Shown here piece after piece: positions 56,783 through 64,000 of a stretch of 64,000 nucleotides of DNA (within the stretch, counting starts at the first letter, position 1; each line of letters starts with the position of its first letter). The translations under genes and the position numbers were made by a program. Source of the stretch: Vulcanimicrobiota bacterium (GTDB taxonomy: Bacteria; Vulcanimicrobiota; Vulcanimicrobiia; Vulcanimicrobiales; Vulcanimicrobiaceae); NCBI GenBank assembly GCA_003135555.1, contig PLCF01000072.1:1-64000 (forward strand), in the 5' to 3' direction. Below the pieces are notes generated by a model that saw only the letters and a list, made by a program, of their open reading frames with translations, was not told the DNA's origin and did not search any database.

Positions 56783-58564
56783 TCACGGCGACACAAGCGA
56801 CGCCCACGATCGTGAGGCGTGCGCATGCCGGTGAAATCCCGCGGGCGTGAGCCGTTGCGCGATTCTCGATTCGGTCACGGCGCCTGAACGCCCGAGCAAG
56901 AAAGCGGCAGCCCGCAGGCTGACCCGCGCTCGCCCGGGCCGTACGGTAAACGGCCCGCGATAGACATGCGACGTCGCCGACGGCGCACTGCCGTCGGTCG
57001 TGTAGCGAATGACCGCCCGGGCGACCGGCACCCGCAACGTCACCGTGAGCTGAGATGCCGTGGTCAGCACGTCGACGGACTGAACGTGCCCCGGTACCGC
57101 TTCGAAGACCGCCGGGCCGCCCGAGAAGGCGAACGACACGTTGGGGATGCGGAACGGGTAGCCGTGTGCTTCGAGCCAGGTGAACTGAGCCGGCAAGCGC
57201 GCCAAGAACGAGCTCCAACTCTTCCTCGAGCGCGGCGTCCAGGCAATCTCCGCGAGCGCGAGCTCGCGCGGGAGCGTCATCCAAAAGAGGTGGCCGGCCG
57301 TGGCGATGTGTTCGGTCCAGACGTTCGCTTGTGCTCCGAGGACGTGGGCGGAGTCGTGAGCCCGCAGGCCGGCCGGCATCACGCTGTCGGAGTAGACTTC
57401 TTCCAGCGTCGACATGTGCCGCGTCGCCGGCGGTTCTTGCGCCGGGTCTCCTTGCGCCGCGTCGAAGTACAGCGGCGGCGACGTGATGACGACGTCGTTT
57501 CCATGCCGCGCGATCGACGCCGCACGTTGACGGCCCGTCCACACCATCACCGTTGCGCGCCGCGACAGGGACGCCGAGTAGACGTCGTCCCACGCGATGA
57601 AGCGCCGCCCGTGCGACTCGGCGTAGCCCTCGATCGCGCGGGTGAACGACGACTGACTCAGCGACGCCGGCCAGTCGACCTCGTCGCCGCCGGCGTGCAG
57701 ATAGGTTGACGGAAACTGCGCCATCGCATCGGCCAGCACGTTGCGCGCGAATTCCAGACCGCTGCCGGTCTGGCAGAGTGTCGAGCCGCAGGCGAACTGC
57801 GGATACGCGCGCAGTGCCGCGCTCGCGTGCGCCGGCATCTCGATCTCCGGAACGACCGTGACATACCGGCGTGCCGCATAGGCAACGATCTCGCGAACGT
57901 CGGACGGTGAGTACGCTTCTCGGCCGGCTGTCAAGGCCGGGTAACGCGTGCTCTGCAGGCGCCACGCTTGATCGTCGGTGAGATGCCAGTGGAACACGTT
58001 GAGCTTGTAGTGCGCCGCGACGTCGATGTACCGCTTGACCACCGCGACCGAAAAGAAGTGCCGTGCCACGTCGAGGTGGATGCCGCGCCAGCGATATTCC
58101 GGCCGGTCGACCACGCTCACGAAACGCGAGGAGAGGTGACCCCTCGACCGCCCCGACACCTGATCGAGCGTCTGGAGCCCGTAGAACAACCCGCGGGCCG
58201 TATTGGCGCGGATCGTGACCCCGTGTCGCCCAACGCGTAGCTCGTAGCCTTCGTCGCCAAGCTGCGCGCTACGTCGGGGCAGGCGTTCCAAGACGATGTC
58301 AGCCGGCTTGCCGTGCGCAGTCCAAATCGTCACGAGACCGTTTCGCGCGAGATACGCGCTCAGCCGCTCGGCGACGTTGCGTTCGACCCCGGCGCCCACG
58401 GCAACACGCGCCCCGCTGGCCCACACAAAGGCGCCCGATGTCGTGCGCACGCTGCGCGGCCACGGCACGATGGAAGGCGCCGGCGCCGCCGCAGCGCCTG
58501 CCGGAACGCTCGAGAGCAAGCCGAACGCGGCGACGGCGGCGAACGCGCGTATGTGGACCTCCAT
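56783..58564 (-). CDS. Beta-N-acetylhexosaminidase (GH20) with C-terminal Fn3-associated domain
   Basis: RGIHLDVARHF, HWHLTDDQAWR, catalytic HAGGDE, IRYTTDGS. Confidence 0.93.
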   Translation of the reverse strand: MEVHIRAFAAVAAFGLLSSVPAGAAAAPAPSIVPWPRSVRTTSGAFVWASGARVAVGAGVERNVAERLSAYLARNGLVTIWTAHGKPADIVLERLPRRSAQLGDEGYELRVGRHGVTIRANTARGLFYGLQTLDQVSGRSRGHLSSRFVSVVDRPEYRWRGIHLDVARHFFSVAVVKRYIDVAAHYKLNVFHWHLTDDQAWRLQSTRYPALTAGREAYSPSDVREIVAYAARRYVTVVPEIEMPAHASAALRAYPQFACGSTLCQTGSGLEFARNVLADAMAQFPSTYLHAGGDEVDWPASLSQSSFTRAIEGYAESHGRRFIAWDDVYSASLSRRATVMVWTGRQRAASIARHGNDVVITSPPLYFDAAQGDPAQEPPATRHMSTLEEVYSDSVMPAGLRAHDSAHVLGAQANVWTEHIATAGHLFWMTLPRELALAEIAWTPRSRKSWSSFLARLPAQFTWLEAHGYPFRIPNVSFAFSGGPAVFEAVPGHVQSVDVLTTASQLTVTLRVPVARAVIRYTTDGSAPSATSHVYRGPFTVRPGRARVSLRAAAFLLGRSGAVTESRIAQRLTPAGFHRHAHASRSWASLVSP

Positions 58565-58626: not shown

Positions 58627-58936
58627 GGCCACGTCGCGCCGCTACGCTATGCGGGATGCGCAATCGTCCCGCCGTCGATGCGAGCCCCAAAGCGGTCGCG
58701 GCGATCGACGCCGTTCTGGATCGCTTCGGCGCTGGCGCGCTCCGCGTCGCCGCGAGCGCCGGCGTGCGCTTCGTCCACCTGCGCGCTACCGAACGGTACC
58801 GCGACCGTTCGCGCGCCTTGCGGCGGCTCGCCAGCGGGGTCGACGACTGGCCGGTGCCGCCAACCGGGCTGTTCGTCGTCGAGGAGCGCGCCGTCTACCT
58901 GCGCTCCACATCACCGATGACGGTGGCGCACGAATT
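58627..58936 (+). repeat. Direct repeat copy 1 (promoter plus 5' part of MRNRPAV ORF)
   Basis: Aligns with 61094-61243 and 63738-64000. The right end is inferred from the compositional switch. Confidence 0.88.
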
Positions 58937-58955
58937 ATACGCAGTCCAACTGTAA
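58656..58955 (+). pseudogene. Truncated putative zincin-like protein (MRNRPAV family)
   Basis: The ORF ends AHELYAVQL*. Codon usage turns AT-rich right after HE, so an HExxH motif appears to be cut. Confidence 0.55.
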
Positions 58956-59216
58956 ACAAACACGGGTGCGGTGCCCGAACCCATTCGCCGCTGCCGGCGG
59001 CAGTCACGGTATCTGCGCGCCTACACCCTCGACCCACTCAGGGCTGCGGGGATCGACCCCGCTGCGAACGACAGCGCGTGAAGGGCGCTTGCGCTTGACG
59101 CTCGTCGCGACGATCGCAACGTCGGTCCCTTTACTCTGGACGACTCGTTCGTTATTTAAAAGACTAACGCTCGAAAACGAAACGTAGACCAGCGCCTGCG
59201 TGGCCTGACGGCGCGG

Positions 59217-60812
59217 CTACGGAAACGCATAGTACGTTCCGGTTAGCGCACGCCGTTCGCCAAGCGGGTATCGGGGAAGCGGCTTTCCTTCGAACACCTG
59301 ATGAAGGTCCGTCATTAAGGCCAGTGAATCTGCGAAATACCCGTGCCCCAAGAAATCGGTGTCGACGTTTGTCGCATCAATGACGTCCATACCGGGAACG
59401 AGCGTAATGACTTGCGCGTCGCCGAGCCGGAGGCCCCCGTTATATTTGTGTGACCACGCCAGCGCAGTATCTCTCGCCGATGCATAGACGGTAATCCGCC
59501 TCGCGGTGCTGCGCATGTTCGTTGCGAGTTGCTCTGTAAAAATCTGTGCATCGATGTCCGGCGCTGCCATCTCGATGTCATGGATCGCCTGGGTCTGTTT
59601 GCCAGCCGCCAAAAGCTTAAGCGAATACGCGAGCGCGGAATTACCCATACTATGCGCCACGATATGGATATTAGTCACGCCTGTTTTCGACGAGACGCCT
59701 ACGATGACATCGCTCAAGTGCTTCGCGGTCCAGACCGCATTGACGTTGTCGACTGGATAACCCCACGTTGTCCCTTGAGACGGCCACGAGTAACAAATTG
59801 CCGGACCATCAAGCGTGAGATCATGGGCGAGTTGCCCAGTTCGAAGGAGCGCGTCCTCAAACGGAACGTTGAACCCGTGAATAAAGAGCAAGGCTTCTTT
59901 TGCCTTGCTCCGAAACGTCATGAGCTTAAGGGCCCGATAGAAACTGGAAGCAGATTCGACATGCGAGTCTAGGATAACCATGTCTCGCTTCGGGTCCGGT
60001 TGACGTAAGCGTATGTACAGAAACGTCGGCGGACTCTCGACATTTCCAAACTTGTGATCGTCAGGAATGCTCACCTCCGCTTCCCCAAACGTCAGAACGC
60101 TGCGAGCCGCACCAAACGATGCGATTGGACCGAGCACGCCGGTGGCGTCGCGCTCACGGTCCCGATCCGTAGCAAAATAGACGCGTAAAGTAGCGAATCC
60201 GCGCGTCCGGGGTCGCGCAGTCGGCGCCGGCGTCGCGCCGCGGTCGACCCCATAAACCGAGGAGCTACCGGAGAGCAGAGTTGCTATCGACTCGACGATC
60301 GTGTCCAGGTAATACAAAGTGCTGGCACGAGCATGCACTCGTTGAGCGTCGGCGCGGCAGGCATACCGCGCATTTCGATTTAATCGCAACCCGTAGCCGT
60401 CGGACTCACGCGCAACGTAGATCCCTGCTCCGTCGACCGTCGGAATAACCCAGACCATCGGATTTGCGTCGGTACAATTAGATTGCGCTGAAGCGCTCGA
60501 CGCATTTCCCACGGGCTCGGGTCCCTGGCTCACCACGGGCGCGGCGAAATCCACGATGACGGCGACGCGGCTATGCGCACTCAGCGCCTCAGAGCGGCAG
60601 ACATAGCGGGCGTCCCGATTCAACTGAAGACCGAAGCCTGCGGAACCTTTCTCCACATAGATGCCGGGGCCGTCGATCGCTGGAACTTGCCAGACGACAG
60701 TATCCGAGCCGGCACAGTTAGGCAGCGCACTGTCTTCTATCTTCGGTGCAGACGACGCAAGAATGGCCGGGGAAATCGCCACAAGCCACGCCAGCGCAAA
60801 CAACTTCTTCAT
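59217..60812 (-). CDS. Secreted DUF900 alpha/beta hydrolase with two tandem N-terminal Cys domains
   Basis: VYFATDR, FIHGFN, YSWPS, AHSMG, AAPDID, GHGYF; signal peptide; AT-richer than the core genes. Confidence 0.88.
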   Translation of the reverse strand: MKKLFALAWLVAISPAILASSAPKIEDSALPNCAGSDTVVWQVPAIDGPGIYVEKGSAGFGLQLNRDARYVCRSEALSAHSRVAVIVDFAAPVVSQGPEPVGNASSASAQSNCTDANPMVWVIPTVDGAGIYVARESDGYGLRLNRNARYACRADAQRVHARASTLYYLDTIVESIATLLSGSSSVYGVDRGATPAPTARPRTRGFATLRVYFATDRDRERDATGVLGPIASFGAARSVLTFGEAEVSIPDDHKFGNVESPPTFLYIRLRQPDPKRDMVILDSHVESASSFYRALKLMTFRSKAKEALLFIHGFNVPFEDALLRTGQLAHDLTLDGPAICYSWPSQGTTWGYPVDNVNAVWTAKHLSDVIVGVSSKTGVTNIHIVAHSMGNSALAYSLKLLAAGKQTQAIHDIEMAAPDIDAQIFTEQLATNMRSTARRITVYASARDTALAWSHKYNGGLRLGDAQVITLVPGMDVIDATNVDTDFLGHGYFADSLALMTDLHQVFEGKPLPRYPLGERRALTGTYYAFP

Positions 60813-60905
60813 ACTGGCCCACCCCCGGAAGCTACCGCTTCCCCAGCCACCGGCCGATGAACGCGGCGATTCTGGCCATTGACGCGGCTCGCCTGCCGCC
60901 GCCCC

Positions 60906-60953
60906 GCGGTCGTCGACCGGTTCGGCACCGACGCGCTGCGGGTCGTAGCTGCA
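60906..60953 (+). repeat. Degenerate internal fragment of the MRNRPAV repeat
   Basis: Encodes AVVDRFGTDALRVVAA versus AVLDRFGAGALRVAAS in copy 1. Confidence 0.6.
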
Positions 60954-61093
60954 AGACTTAACGGACGCCCTCTGTTCGCCGCGCCCGCGAGGAGGTTCAC
61001 GCCGATCGCTCGCAGCGCGCGAGACGTAGAGACCCGCTCGGCGTCCCCGTGCGGCTCAGCGCAAAAGCGGCCGTCACAGCGGCGACGCTCTGC

Positions 61094-61243
61094 GGACACA
61101 TCCGACCGTTACGCTACACGCGATGCGCAACCGTCCCGCCGTCGATGCGAGCCTCGAAGCCGTCGCGGCGATCGATGCCGTTCTGGACCGCTTCGGCGTC
61201 GGCGCAATGCGCGTCGCGGCGAGCGCCGGCGTACGCTTCGTCC
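61094..61243 (+). repeat. Direct repeat copy 2
   Basis: TACGCT-n7-ATG plus 40 codons, 36 of 40 aa identical to copy 1. Confidence 0.9.
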
Positions 61244-61539
61244 TGTTGCTGAGACGCAACGACAAGGCAATCCTAAAAGCCTATAAGGAATTCTGGGACA
61301 AGGTGTGGTGGAATCGCCACCAAAACTGGGTCTATCGCATTGAGTCTAAACAGCAGCCTCTAACGAGAGAGCAGATGCCGCTTTTCAAACGGGCGGCGAG
61401 CGCCGCACGACGGATCGAACGCACGTACGGTAAGAAGAATCTTGGATGGGACGACTTTGAATGGGGCCTCCTGAGCGGTCGAATGTCGGCGCTAGCCTGG
61501 GTAATGGGCGGCGAATGGGACGAGTCCCTGGACACTTGA
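61123..61539 (+). CDS. Chimeric ORF: repeat-derived N-terminus fused to a foreign C-terminal domain
   Basis: The first 40 aa are the repeat. The rest ([11 protein letters not shown]...[31 protein letters not shown]) is AT-richer and resembles, from memory, the C-terminus of some PIN-like proteins. Confidence 0.65.
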
Positions 61540-61656
61540 GCCGCCGCATTCGGCTGTTTTTCTATCTTGTGAAGGTACCAATCACCAATTGGTCATGACG
61601 GGGGACAAAGAGCTAAGCTAAGACATCAGGTATCTGTATGGCGCACGCTGCAAGCG

Positions 61657-63012
61657 TCAAAGTCGGCCGACGAGCCCGCTTAGCGCGGGGGTTCGCGAAA
61701 AGCGCCGATCACCAGGATCGGGCTCGACGATGCGGCGGGGTACTAAGTACGGCCGCGCCAGCTCCTCAACTTCATATCCAAAGCGCCGGGTCAAGCCGTC
61801 AATGCTCGGCTGGTTGGGCCTACCGTATTGCCTGAAAAGGTTGCCCGCAACGTCCTCAAACTCAACGATGACTTGTGCGATGACCCCCATGGGTTCGTAA
61901 TGGCCTGACCGTTTACTTAGCGGCACGGTTCGAACATAGCGGCCGCCATTTGCCGCAATGGTCACGGGAGCTTCCAAGGTCGTAAGTCCAGGAAGGAAAG
62001 CACGGACCTTGCTTGCAGCTCCTGGGCCGACATTCTCGACTACTAAGTCGATCTCGATGTTTGTTGGCTCAATCCTGCGAGTGGCTGCGACGAGAATATT
62101 TAGGCGCGGACGAAATGCCATAAGCCGTACGTCGTCTTCGAGGGCGTCGTACGGCATTCCGAACGGGCGATCGCGTTCGGCTAGGGCCTTTGCAAATGTC
62201 GCGGCTGCTTCGCTTGCGATATTAGCCTCTCGCGACGATGTCCCCGCGGAGCCTTCGGAACTCGGCATCGTCGGCGTCGCTGTCGACACCATCGCCGGCC
62301 TGAGGTGCCTCAGTAGTTGAGTCATAACTAGGTCGAGGTCGTCCGCCGGAAAATAGTTCAGCGTAGCAAGAAATGGGCTTAAGGATTGAAGCTTCTCACG
62401 CGGCACATCACACAGGAGCGGCAGTACAACGACCTTACGCTCTTCAATCTGACGCTTCAGCAATGCTTCAAGTTCGGCTCGTGGATAACTCTTCTCAAAG
62501 TACATCTGTGTCAGGATTAAGATCGCAAAGCGTGATTGCGTGAGCCCCTTTTGAATTGCCGAAAGCAGCGGCTCGCCCCACATAACGCGATCGCGGTCAT
62601 ACCAATAGGAAACCTTTTCCTCATCGAGCCTTTCGAGAAGCTTAGTCACGTAGCCACGGTCTTCGCCTGCGTACGAGACAAAGACATCGTATGGATAGTC
62701 CTCCTCGAACGAGCGGACTACGATCTCCTCGGCACCGCCGCTCGAACCGCGGCTCCGCTTTCGCGATCGAGCCATAATAGCCGCGCCACGTGTCGTCAGC
62801 GTAGCCATGCTTCCAGCTCTGATGCCGGCCGGATGGTGCTTTATATCCACTGCGCCCTCATCGGCTAGGATATCGAGCTCATCAAGAACAGCATCCGGGG
62901 TGAACCCGAGCTCCCTCGCTATCACGGCCGCGTCGAAGTATCGTTCACTCCCGCCGTCGTTCATCAACTGCTGCAGCGCTTCTAGGACGGCCAGGCTATC
63001 ATTATCCATCAT
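61657..63012 (-). CDS. wHTH-TIR-beta-sandwich protein, candidate defence protein
   Basis: N-terminal IARELGFTPDAVLDELDILADEG; TIR YDVFVSYAGED...YWYD...RAELEAL; C-terminal VENVGPGAA...VEFEDVAGN. Confidence 0.85.
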   Translation of the reverse strand: MMDNDSLAVLEALQQLMNDGGSERYFDAAVIARELGFTPDAVLDELDILADEGAVDIKHHPAGIRAGSMATLTTRGAAIMARSRKRSRGSSGGAEEIVVRSFEEDYPYDVFVSYAGEDRGYVTKLLERLDEEKVSYWYDRDRVMWGEPLLSAIQKGLTQSRFAILILTQMYFEKSYPRAELEALLKRQIEERKVVVLPLLCDVPREKLQSLSPFLATLNYFPADDLDLVMTQLLRHLRPAMVSTATPTMPSSEGSAGTSSREANIASEAAATFAKALAERDRPFGMPYDALEDDVRLMAFRPRLNILVAATRRIEPTNIEIDLVVENVGPGAASKVRAFLPGLTTLEAPVTIAANGGRYVRTVPLSKRSGHYEPMGVIAQVIVEFEDVAGNLFRQYGRPNQPSIDGLTRRFGYEVEELARPYLVPRRIVEPDPGDRRFSRTPALSGLVGRL

Positions 63013-63244
63013 TTTCCGTTTCTATCGTCGAATACTTAGCGGCCCAATAACAGGCATATAAAGCCGACGTCGCCGTTGGACATAGTCTAGCAGAATGTTG
63101 GCAGTTTCCGCTGCATTTTACGAGACGGTCCTATTCAGGATCTCAGATGAGTCCGCGTCACGCTCGCTTTGAGCTCGACCTCGCTTGTTCCCAAACGTTC
63201 GCACGCAATGAGTAGGTCGCAGTCGCGAACGATATCGTCGTCTA

Positions 63245-63484
63245 TTACCGACTGCAGACCGCTAAGACGGCCGCGGCAACCATATCGGTCTTCCAGCGTC
63301 GCGGTAGGATGACGGATGCCGTATTCGCAGTATACCTAGTGTTCCAATCTAAGATGCTGCGGGGCGCCATGATTCGCTCGTCACTGCAATCGCTCGGTGA
63401 TGCAATGAACACCTGATAGCAGGTACAGCCCTTATCGGCATTCAGCTGGACCGAGCGCCCGGAGGCCTCGGCCGAACTTTTCAA
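63245..63484 (-). pseudogene. DUF4062-like N-terminal fragment
   Basis: YQVFIASPSDCSDER...WN...LPRRW motif followed by an early stop. Confidence 0.55.
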
Positions 63485-63737
63485 CGACGCGGCACACGTA
63501 GGCGAAGGACCATCTTACGGCAACACATTGGTCACGATATCGTAGTCGCCGACGAACAATCCAACGAGCCCGTGATCATACTTGCAATGCATCCTCCCCT
63601 TCAGCACCGACCGGCGTGGACGCCGTCCGAACATCCCTCGAGATCTGCTCACACGGTCACCTTGCTCCTTAACTTGACCTCATAGCCATGGCTTTCCGCG
63701 CGACTGCCGCCGCTTGGAAACACCCCCGACCACGTGT

Positions 63738-64000
63738 GGCCACATGCCGCCGCTACGCTACGCGGGATGCGCAATCGTCCCGCGGTCGAAGCGAGCCCCG
63801 AAGCGGCCGCGGCGATCGACGCCGTTCTGGATCGGTTCGGTCCCGGCGCGTTACGGGTCGCGGCGAGCGCCGGCGTACGCTTCGTCCACTTGCGCGGTAG
63901 CGAACGCTACCGCGATCGCTCGCGCGCGCTGCGCAGGCTCGCCAGCGGGGTCGACGACTGGCCGGTACCGCCGGCCGGGCTCTTCGTCGTCGAGGAGCGC
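63738..64000 (+). repeat. Direct repeat copy 3 (runs off the window)
   Basis: TACGCT-n7-ATG; 71 of 78 aa identical to copy 1. Confidence 0.9.
63767..64000 (+). CDS. MRNRPAV-family ORF, partial (open at the window end)
   Basis: Manual translation: [78 protein letters not shown]. Confidence 0.75.
   Translation, partial: MRNRPAVEASPEAAAAIDAVLDRFGPGALRVAASAGVRFVHLRGSERYRDRSRALRRLASGVDDWPVPPAGLFVVEER

Follow-up and report, generated by a model that had tools for sequence, protein, structure and literature searches.

Displaced halves of a core zinc-peptidase gene bound cargo units at two site-specific insertion sites in Vulcanimicrobiota

The present analysis concerns the right end of a 64-kb stretch of DNA from a Vulcanimicrobiota genome (hereafter the window; the first 64 kb of the 112-kb contig C50 of genome G000), in which the same gene start recurs between unrelated genes. 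A reading made from the sequence alone had interpreted these repeats as the spacers of a cassette array, each composed of a promoter and an open reading frame (ORF) fragment. We found instead that they represent front halves, now displaced, of a core zinc-peptidase gene serving as an attachment site. Tyrosine-recombinase elements of the Tn554/GInt/SE kind insert into this gene at two fixed 6-bp overlaps, both located on zinc-ligand codons. The resulting array is real and polymorphic. As to its origin, we hold with about even confidence that decayed site-specific elements have piled up at the locus through repair of the gene followed by collapse of the element.

The repeats derive from a core zinc-peptidase gene

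The three direct copies of the gene start, with ATGs at 58656, 61123 and 63767, were reproduced together with their reported identities: copies 1 and 3 agree at 71/78 residues, all seven differences falling in the 78 codons inside the window, and copies 1 and 2 at 36/40 (four differences). At the nucleotide level, copy 3 shares 88% identity with copy 1 over 310 nt and 84% with copy 2 over 159 nt. The degenerate fourth fragment that had been noticed near 60906 is real but weak, since nhmmer recovered it at 60907-60950 (E=0.003) and its local alignment score was 156, compared with 124±8.5 for 200 shuffles (maximum 150). Copies 1 and 2 break off at codons 93 and 41, respectively, into AT-richer DNA, the GC content of the cargo being 0.585 and 0.562 versus 0.68-0.72 in host genes. 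Copy 3, in contrast to its initial description as a fragment, continues on C50 as an intact 184-aa gene that has a free site A at codons 92-93 and, at codons 138-140, a free site B. A whole-assembly blastn search with the repeat unit returned three copies, all at this locus, with remaining matches of at most 49 nt, and the arm that follows copy 1 is present once in G000; the repeat is thus not the end of an insertion sequence or miniature inverted-repeat transposable element scattered over the genome.

The relatives of the peptidase gene belong to Eremiobacterota/Vulcanimicrobiota. The gene was detected in 328 of the 348 genomes of the family and in 184/186 high-quality ones; the family tallies for the peptidase, the recombinases and the site-B pattern include unpublished genomes, and the junction claims are independent of them. 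The protein carries the motifs HEFAH and EYFAE, with H92, E93, H96, Y129 and E140 invariant in 47 homologues, and its model (pLDDT 95) shows the zincin fold of ATLF and Pro-Pro endopeptidases (Foldseek probability 1.0, TM 0.66-0.70). The fold, HExxH and the conserved Tyr129 and Glu140 are common to the ATLF-like zinc peptidases (PPEP-1/2/3 and the catalytic domain of anthrax lethal factor), from which it differs in its small size and stand-alone form, its occurrence in a bacterial family of soil and peat, its identity to them of 14-21% and the lack of a toxin context. It is usually found near an FHA/PP2C phosphatase/FtsW-RodA cluster, the genes to either side vary widely, and a search for viral relatives gave two weak matches. 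Divergent paralogues sit on conjugative elements.

Several unusual forms of the gene were also observed: two whole copies 3.5 kb apart in G339 (L166, C6), a peptidase domain inside an ORF of ~1290 aa in G038 (L109, C76) and, in L167-L180, many divergent whole paralogues elsewhere in the genomes, some of them on conjugative elements.

The arrangement TACGCT-n7-ATG, previously called a leaderless promoter, is the native upstream element of the peptidase gene, as it was matched in 26 out of 32 genus orthologues. It may act as a leaderless promoter; a scan for sigma70 promoters and terminators stayed at chance level and found no promoter. Neither a tRNA/tmRNA target (in L001) nor any Rfam match was detected, and no inverted repeats lay at the unit borders among the 25 longest of the 87 listed.

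Copy 1 ends at a fixed site shared with other genomes

Copy 1 includes about 30 nt of upstream DNA (TACGCT at 58643-58648) and terminates in the 6-bp overlap CACGAA (58929-58934), which corresponds to the H92-E93 codons, so that the junction reads GCG-CACGAA and then TTATACGCAGTCCAACTGTAAAC. A 5′ fragment in G009 ends at the same codon and is followed by an arm identical at 22/23 nt, while G409 shares 17/23 nt; beyond 23 nt, the similarity among the three genomes drops to chance. The binomial probabilities of sharing the codon and the 23-nt end were 5e-12 and 4e-6. Among 401 phylum genomes, the 23-nt arm occurred without mismatches in G000 and G009 only, and allowing 3 mismatches added three matches, none near a peptidase gene. 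A metagenome scan for the arm yielded one locus (L123), which equals L098 in length and in the position of the match and is therefore not independent, and the 22 matches of a 15-mer in viral contigs were not accompanied by a peptidase gene.

In G409, the peptidase gene is split by a 24-kb element that has CACGAG at both ends and short imperfect inverted termini (GTTTACAG/CTGTAAAC). Its far end contains three tyrosine-recombinase-like genes (the third in pieces) and a 138-aa ORF, and its cargo comprises a type III restriction-modification (RM) system and AriAB-like genes. By comparison with this element, the window keeps the end distal to the recombinase genes. Since copy 1 ends at a fixed site followed by an arm known from G009 and G409, we are highly confident that its junction arose by site-specific recombination and not by illegitimate joining.

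Upstream 5′ fragments were found in 4 of the 37 genus genomes examined (the window, G009, G010 and G035), many loci having short flanks; partial matches at contig ends (G019, G024, G167, G205, G366 and others) were not taken as fragments. Copies 1 and 3 are sisters (88.8% nucleotide identity, FastTree 0.997; best other genome 84.4%). They differ by 23 synonymous and 7 non-synonymous codon changes, indicating that both diverged as working genes of close relatives. Each 5′ fragment groups with the intact copy of its own genome, so the insertions in G000 and G009 look independent, a pattern that gene conversion could mimic. Genus-wide trees of the 5′ and 3′ gene halves lacked the resolution needed to show copy 3 as chimeric. 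In G009 (L098 9618-14291) the order is a 5′ fragment with the site-A arm, cargo, a site-B-like arm with a 3′ tail, and the intact gene.

Copy 2 continues in frame into the 3′ part of a longer foreign gene. This suggests a deletion reaching into that gene, and hence a later shortening of the copy. The foreign tail has 396 homologues, the top matches being 66-82% identical and several of them longer at the N-terminus; it may be part of a PIN-domain gene, although Pfam gave no match. A motif scan behind copy 2 did not find the arm. The open 138-aa fusion (61123-61539) places the native start and upstream motif before the foreign C-terminal domain and may be expressed.

A second site in the same gene carries elements and recombinase-free arrays

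Whereas site A is the CACGAG of HEFAH, site B lies on the codons of YFAE with the overlap TYGCNG, and both overlaps are located between short inverted arms starting with TTAT. We re-searched 63 genomes with at least two matches (two unpublished ones excluded) and retrieved selected regions. Displaced 3′ tails begin at codons 138-139 behind ATTCCACATAA. Units consisting of a gene tail, cargo and one 11-bp arm amounted to 24 in 12 genomes (17 loci), with up to five in a row (G201); a motif match inside a tail (G433) was excluded from this count. In genus g30, at least 10 of 18 genomes presented the junction pattern, counted from those of 150 listed rows that had 0-1 mismatches beside the gene; the family-wide count at 2 mismatches was swamped by chance (288/348 genomes) and was not used further. 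The inverted arm follows the 5′ parts in G436, G249, G167 and G268, which results in an 11-6-11 site. Searched as an exact 11-mer, the site-B arm gave 13 matches, 11 of them in arrays, and was absent from one single-contig genome. It presumably resembles the XerC/D and loxP arms; no conserved host dif site was identified.

At this site, G249 carries a trio of TnpA/B/C-like proteins of 352, 650 and 131 aa, inside a paralogue on a conjugative element. Autonomous or two-arm elements were found in paralogues on conjugative elements, recognised by SSB, VirB1, VirB10, relaxase and TraG. The 6-mer at the tnpA end is foreign (CCCCTG in G249, GAACTG in G436), as is CACAAT in G009, when compared to the gene's own 6-mer; the CACGAA of the window is a synonymous variant and hence uninformative on an imported overlap.

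The arrays themselves contained no remnants of recombinase modules in the ten array loci (L146-L155), L001 or L098. Of the displaced tails, 15/24 are open to the natural stop. The arms are conserved for 12-13 nt, beyond which the inner flanks are mostly different. Some site-B units recur between genomes at different positions: one tail with its cargo forms the end of the intact gene in G180 but is found as a displaced unit in G166 and G287 (77-90%), and an MFS unit is 96% identical across two genera. Furthermore, G180 and G269 share 749 bp with 99.6% identity up to the arm and then continue into different peptidase homologues. The arrays mainly carry genes for transporters and enzymes as cargo. 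Genes resembling Gabija, PDC-M01 and RM systems occur in elements with two ends or a left arm. Site-B insertions were also seen in L162 (G167), L160 (G153) and L234 (G268), where recombinase genes were not in the retrieved stretches; their cargo is Gabija-like plus Mrr in G167 and PDC-M01/Septu-like ATPase-HNH pairs in G153 and G268.

The array is real and polymorphic

Sequencing runs were compared through their contigs at a likeness threshold of 85, at which the exact position of a joint is unreliable. In runs X4 and X5, from two other studies, the GH20 gene to the left of the array was present with 96-97% identity, most of the cargo had no depth and a joint skipped it. Near relatives thus have an empty allele in which GH20 adjoins the intact peptidase gene. 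Contigs of run X2, which belongs to the same study as the possible source, showed 0 differences from the copy-1 junction through to copy 2 and across the TIR gene to the start of copy 3; run X6 covers the stretch in short pieces only. Together, the empty allele and the cargo-bearing contigs show that the 5-kb insert is real and polymorphic. The earlier proposals of a conserved gene acting as a recurrent anchor for foreign DNA and of a variable array are borne out.

The downstream side is polymorphic too, since joints in X2, X4 and X5 also skip the 533-aa gene that directly follows the intact peptidase (L001 8309-10150; C50 64.3-66.2 kb), for which neither Pfam nor PADLOC gave a match.

Recombinases are absent from the contig and sister elements occupy a DNA-ligase gene

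No integrase had been seen in the window, and this holds for the whole of C50: the four tyrosine recombinases of G000, at best 27-29% identical to the element proteins, lie elsewhere. In this assembly, which is 84% complete, neither a cognate recombinase, nor the Tn554-type tnpA/tnpB/tnpC trio, nor the four-gene module was found; the latter is present in G409, G023 and G133. Close homologues of the large Tn554-like recombinase occur in 4 of 348 genomes, none with arrays, and autonomous relatives are rare (4 and 8 of 348).

The four-gene elements of G023, a genome of the same genus, and G133 are inserted at the KYDG (catalytic-lysine) codons of an ATP-dependent DNA ligase gene. Their order is 5′ half, recombinase module, full ligase copy, cargo and 3′ half, and the rescue copy in G023 is an intact 567-aa ORF. 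An additional 3′ ligase fragment (residues 387-567) is located 12 kb further on in G023, with no arm recognised, and related recombinase modules occupy other sites in G029, G379, G317, G166, G257 and G372 (L203, L205-L209).

A proposed route of repair followed by collapse, and its alternatives

According to our preferred reading, an incoming element would carry a repair copy of the peptidase gene, presumably from a close relative. Homologous recombination between this copy and the displaced host half would then eliminate, in a single step, the displaced 3′ half together with the recombinase genes and the second arm. The product would be a 5′ half with the distal arm, followed by cargo and an intact gene whose target site is free again; repeated rounds would generate an array in which older units erode, as copies 2 and 4 may have done. 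At site B, the mirror process would leave repeats of intact gene, cargo and an arm with a 3′ tail. In the ligase elements, recombination of the rescue copy with the host half would eliminate the module, and what remained would be a fragment with one arm, cargo and an intact gene. In addition, no 3′ peptidase fragment was found in G000, as collapse predicts.

Several observations weigh against this reading. A peptidase repair copy within an autonomous element was not found in any retrieved locus, and the elements of G409, G249 and G436 do no more than interrupt the gene. In the site-B elements of G249 and G436, the TTATGTGGAAT arm is attached to the 5′ half, but in the arrays to the 3′ tail, so that an opposite orientation must be assumed; at site A, the repair copy would need to face against the recombinase genes, unlike in the ligase case. 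Of the window's three displaced copies, two have no arm, and the site-B units measure only 0.25-3.5 kb where both borders are visible. G009 mixes a site-A left arm with a site-B right arm, and its fragment and intact gene share an identical run of 132 nt that ends at the site and is preceded by 85% identity, which repair and collapse do not explain. Finally, arms are absent, by eye and by motif scan, from the flanks of the other fragment-cargo-gene duplications of G000.

Alternatively, the one-arm units (arm, cargo and repair half-gene) could be non-autonomous cassettes of an integron-like platform, excised as circles and integrated into the site of the intact gene by visiting Tn554/GInt-type recombinases on conjugative elements, with older units pushed outward. 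Eremiobacterota would then possess a gene-capture platform in a core peptidase gene, devoid of its own integrase, whose cassettes move back and forth between the chromosomal gene and mobile paralogues of it. We regard this as possible but somewhat doubtful. The change of inner flanks beyond the 12-13 conserved nucleotides, the 15 open tails, the recurrence of the G180 tail and cargo in G166 and G287 and of the MFS unit in two genera, the entry of the 749 bp shared by G180 and G269 into two different homologues and the residence of autonomous or two-arm elements in conjugative paralogues are all in line with it; however, each of these also fits repair followed by collapse. Moreover, G000 yielded no cognate recombinase, the few genomes with Tn554-like homologues bear no arrays, no circle was observed in the contig data and recombination at a one-arm site is not described in the available portions of the literature consulted.

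It is unlikely that the gene was simply hit and then repaired, that is, that a disrupting element was followed by recovery of the intact gene from a relative's DNA through one homologous and one illegitimate join, which would delete most of the element and bring in the donor's flanking DNA as cargo. The disruption of the gene by all three autonomous elements seen in it, the wide variation of both gene flanks between genomes and the grouping of fragments with their own genome's intact copy agree with such a route. Nevertheless, random joins should sometimes leave recombinase remnants, of which none was present in twelve loci, and neither the change of inner flanks exactly at the arm nor the recurrence of identical units in different genomes is expected.

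Still less probable is the mechanism originally suggested, homology-facilitated illegitimate recombination anchored on the conserved 5′ end and involving no site-specific enzyme. It cannot account for a common codon and 23-nt end in three genomes, nor for the start of 24 tails at a single codon behind the same arm, and it is refuted for copy 1. Copies 2 and 4 may still fit it, given the arm-less ends at codon 41 (copy 2) and at codons 16-17 and 15 (G010 and G035) and the arm-less partial duplications elsewhere in G000. A local duplication with subsequent decay, or an assembly artefact, can practically be dismissed, as the sequence-only reading had already argued: copies 1 and 3 are more similar to each other than to any other sequence and no contig among those listed from the runs spans the whole stretch, but the divergence is mostly synonymous, the X2 contigs match the junctions without differences and the junction is common to other genomes.

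Other features of the window

The coordinates of the features are collected in Table 1. Pfam confirmed the DUF900 (E 7e-44) and TIR_2 (E 8.5e-19) assignments of the cargo, whereas the winged helix-turn-helix (HTH) of the TIR protein reduced to weak HTH matches and DUF4062 was not found in the window ORFs. PADLOC matched the TIR protein to PDC-S66 (E 7e-31) over the TIR part only. Thus, of the cargo that had been described as defence-type, within the window the TIR gene alone looks defence-like.

Table 1. Features of the array and of the related ligase-gene elements
Feature	Position	Strand	Remarks
GH20 beta-hexosaminidase gene, left host flank	56783..58564	-	Pfam GH20 E 5e-76
Copy 1, displaced 5′ half of the zinc-peptidase gene (upstream motif and codons 1-93)	58627..58934	+	
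Element end (attachment, att, arm) TTATACGCAGTCCAACTGTAAAC	58935..58957	+	Matches the recombinase-distal end of the G409 element
Cargo 1, 531-aa protein with C-terminal DUF900 alpha/beta hydrolase	59217..60812	-	
Copy 4, strongly decayed 5′ fragment of the peptidase gene	60817..61090	+	Best core 60907-60950
Copy 2, 5′ fragment, codons 1-41	61091..61245	+	ATG 61123; att junction presumably lost by deletion
C-terminal ~97 codons of a foreign conserved hypothetical gene	61246..61539	+	In frame with copy 2
Cargo, 451-aa TIR-domain protein with weak N-terminal HTH	61657..63012	-	Possible defence gene
Short remnant ORF, no established family	63245..63484	-	Weak PADLOC PDC-S60 (E 0.002); no Pfam match
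Copy 3, beginning of the intact 184-aa HExxH zinc-peptidase gene	63738..64000	+	Full gene C50:63767-64321
Ligase-gene elements	L211 7020-14687 with L223/L224 (G023:C251); L210/L225 (G133:C2)		

Further along C50, an ~80-bp repeat pair (66032-66113 and 66811-66886) with very high depth and many loose ends is probably a dispersed intergenic repeat. Other duplications with a fragment-cargo-gene layout, 89-97% identical, were noted in G000 at C25 31524-34652, C16 34818-36044, C97 48335-51933 and C58 104312-107873, the last of which starts with the arm-like TTATGCGGAATT; their PspA-, LigD-, ComM- and flagellar-like names are readings of the ORF starts.

Comparison with known systems

The comparisons below refer to the available portions of the cited papers. 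The layout had first been thought to have no described counterpart, but tandem islands, CIME accretion and the target-gene-like copy of Tn552-II are relatives. The closest likeness is to CIMEs and tandem islands, in which an intact target and displaced end fragments bound tandem units, many of them without integration genes (PMC5704250, PMC3146451, PMC4383910). Among the ssrA islands of Dehalococcoides, 15 lack an integration module (PMC3146451), and 5′-fragment islands are known but rare (159/3919 in Islander; PMC4383910). In our arrays, fragments likewise lie in the right order and orientation, 5′ ones upstream and 3′ tails downstream, the latter in 12 genomes, and units lack integration genes, with the arm retained after copy 1 and lost after copies 2 and 4. 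No autonomous element adjoins the units in the window. The differences are that the target comprises two internal catalytic-motif sites in a protein gene, that the repair piece is 140-310 bp of coding DNA, accompanied at site A by the upstream motif, and that the recombinases are of the Tn554/GInt/SE type, which normally split their target, the units retaining one short arm.

GInts, SEs and Tn554 combine gene modules with a 6-bp overlap (PMC5385486, PMC10214605, PMC3414803, PMC8138268). The G409-type elements resemble GInts and SEs in having at one end a module of four genes, three of them recombinase-like and one small, followed by cargo and a short, poorly conserved far end. They also have in common a 6-nt overlap, fixed target genes, traffic between close relatives and defence cargo, as in G409; the likeness is one of layout, set against published descriptions. 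The geometry of a fixed site, a 6-bp overlap and short imperfect inverted ends was found in G409 and, at the left junction, in G000 and G009. GInts carry 2.5-70 kb of cargo (PMC5385486), so that the site-B units fall below or at the low end of this range. Their hosts are Proteobacteria, Verrucomicrobia, Bacteroidetes and Firmicutes (PMC5385486), and those of SEs are Gammaproteobacteria (PMC10214605). The supplements searched for GInts and SEs listed no peptidase or ligase target, and the portions covered do not describe rescue copies or recombinase-free arrays for them.

Similarly, the site-B trio of G249 agrees with Tn554 in size and Pfam matches. A foreign 6-mer at one end has been described for Tn554/SE (PMC10214605), and a target-gene-like copy was proposed to rescue the disrupted gene in Tn552-II (PMC12486829). 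The likeness thus includes a TnpA/B/C-sized trio, a short overlap imported from the previous target, a target-gene-like copy (PMC12486829, PMC3414803) and shuttling between chromosomal and plasmid target homologues. In contrast, these are single elements of staphylococci or actinobacteria, with no stacked recombinase-free units in the portions covered, and the trio serves site B and not the site A of the window. Because the window has lost or never had recombinase genes, it is itself neither a GInt nor a Tn554.

In the literature searched, in which subscription journals are thinly covered, we found no account of the peptidase target, of such elements or arrays in Eremiobacterota, or of stacked one-arm units. 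The results extend Tn554/GInt/SE elements to Eremiobacterota and bring two further targets, the genes of an ATLF-like peptidase and of a DNA ligase, with insertion at catalytic-motif codons in both. As the attachment sites are defined to the base and G249 has an apparently intact three-gene set, the chemistry of these elements, poorly understood so far, becomes testable with one-arm and two-arm donors. Such arrays escape tools that need an integrase or attC sites, and they show how site-specific transposons that disrupt genes can become a harmless site at which genes are collected again and again.

The similarity to integrons lies in the outcome, a variable row of units of 1-3 genes with one short recombination site each and, probably, the newest unit next to the fixed site. 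Unlike in an integron, no IntI-like gene lies beside the array, no folded attC was found by the inverted-repeat listing and Rfam (no attC model being used), the geometry is that of a double-stranded arm with a 6-bp overlap and each unit carries half a host gene. Altogether, the array works like the accretion of CIMEs and tandem islands with an integron-like outcome, and is not an integron.

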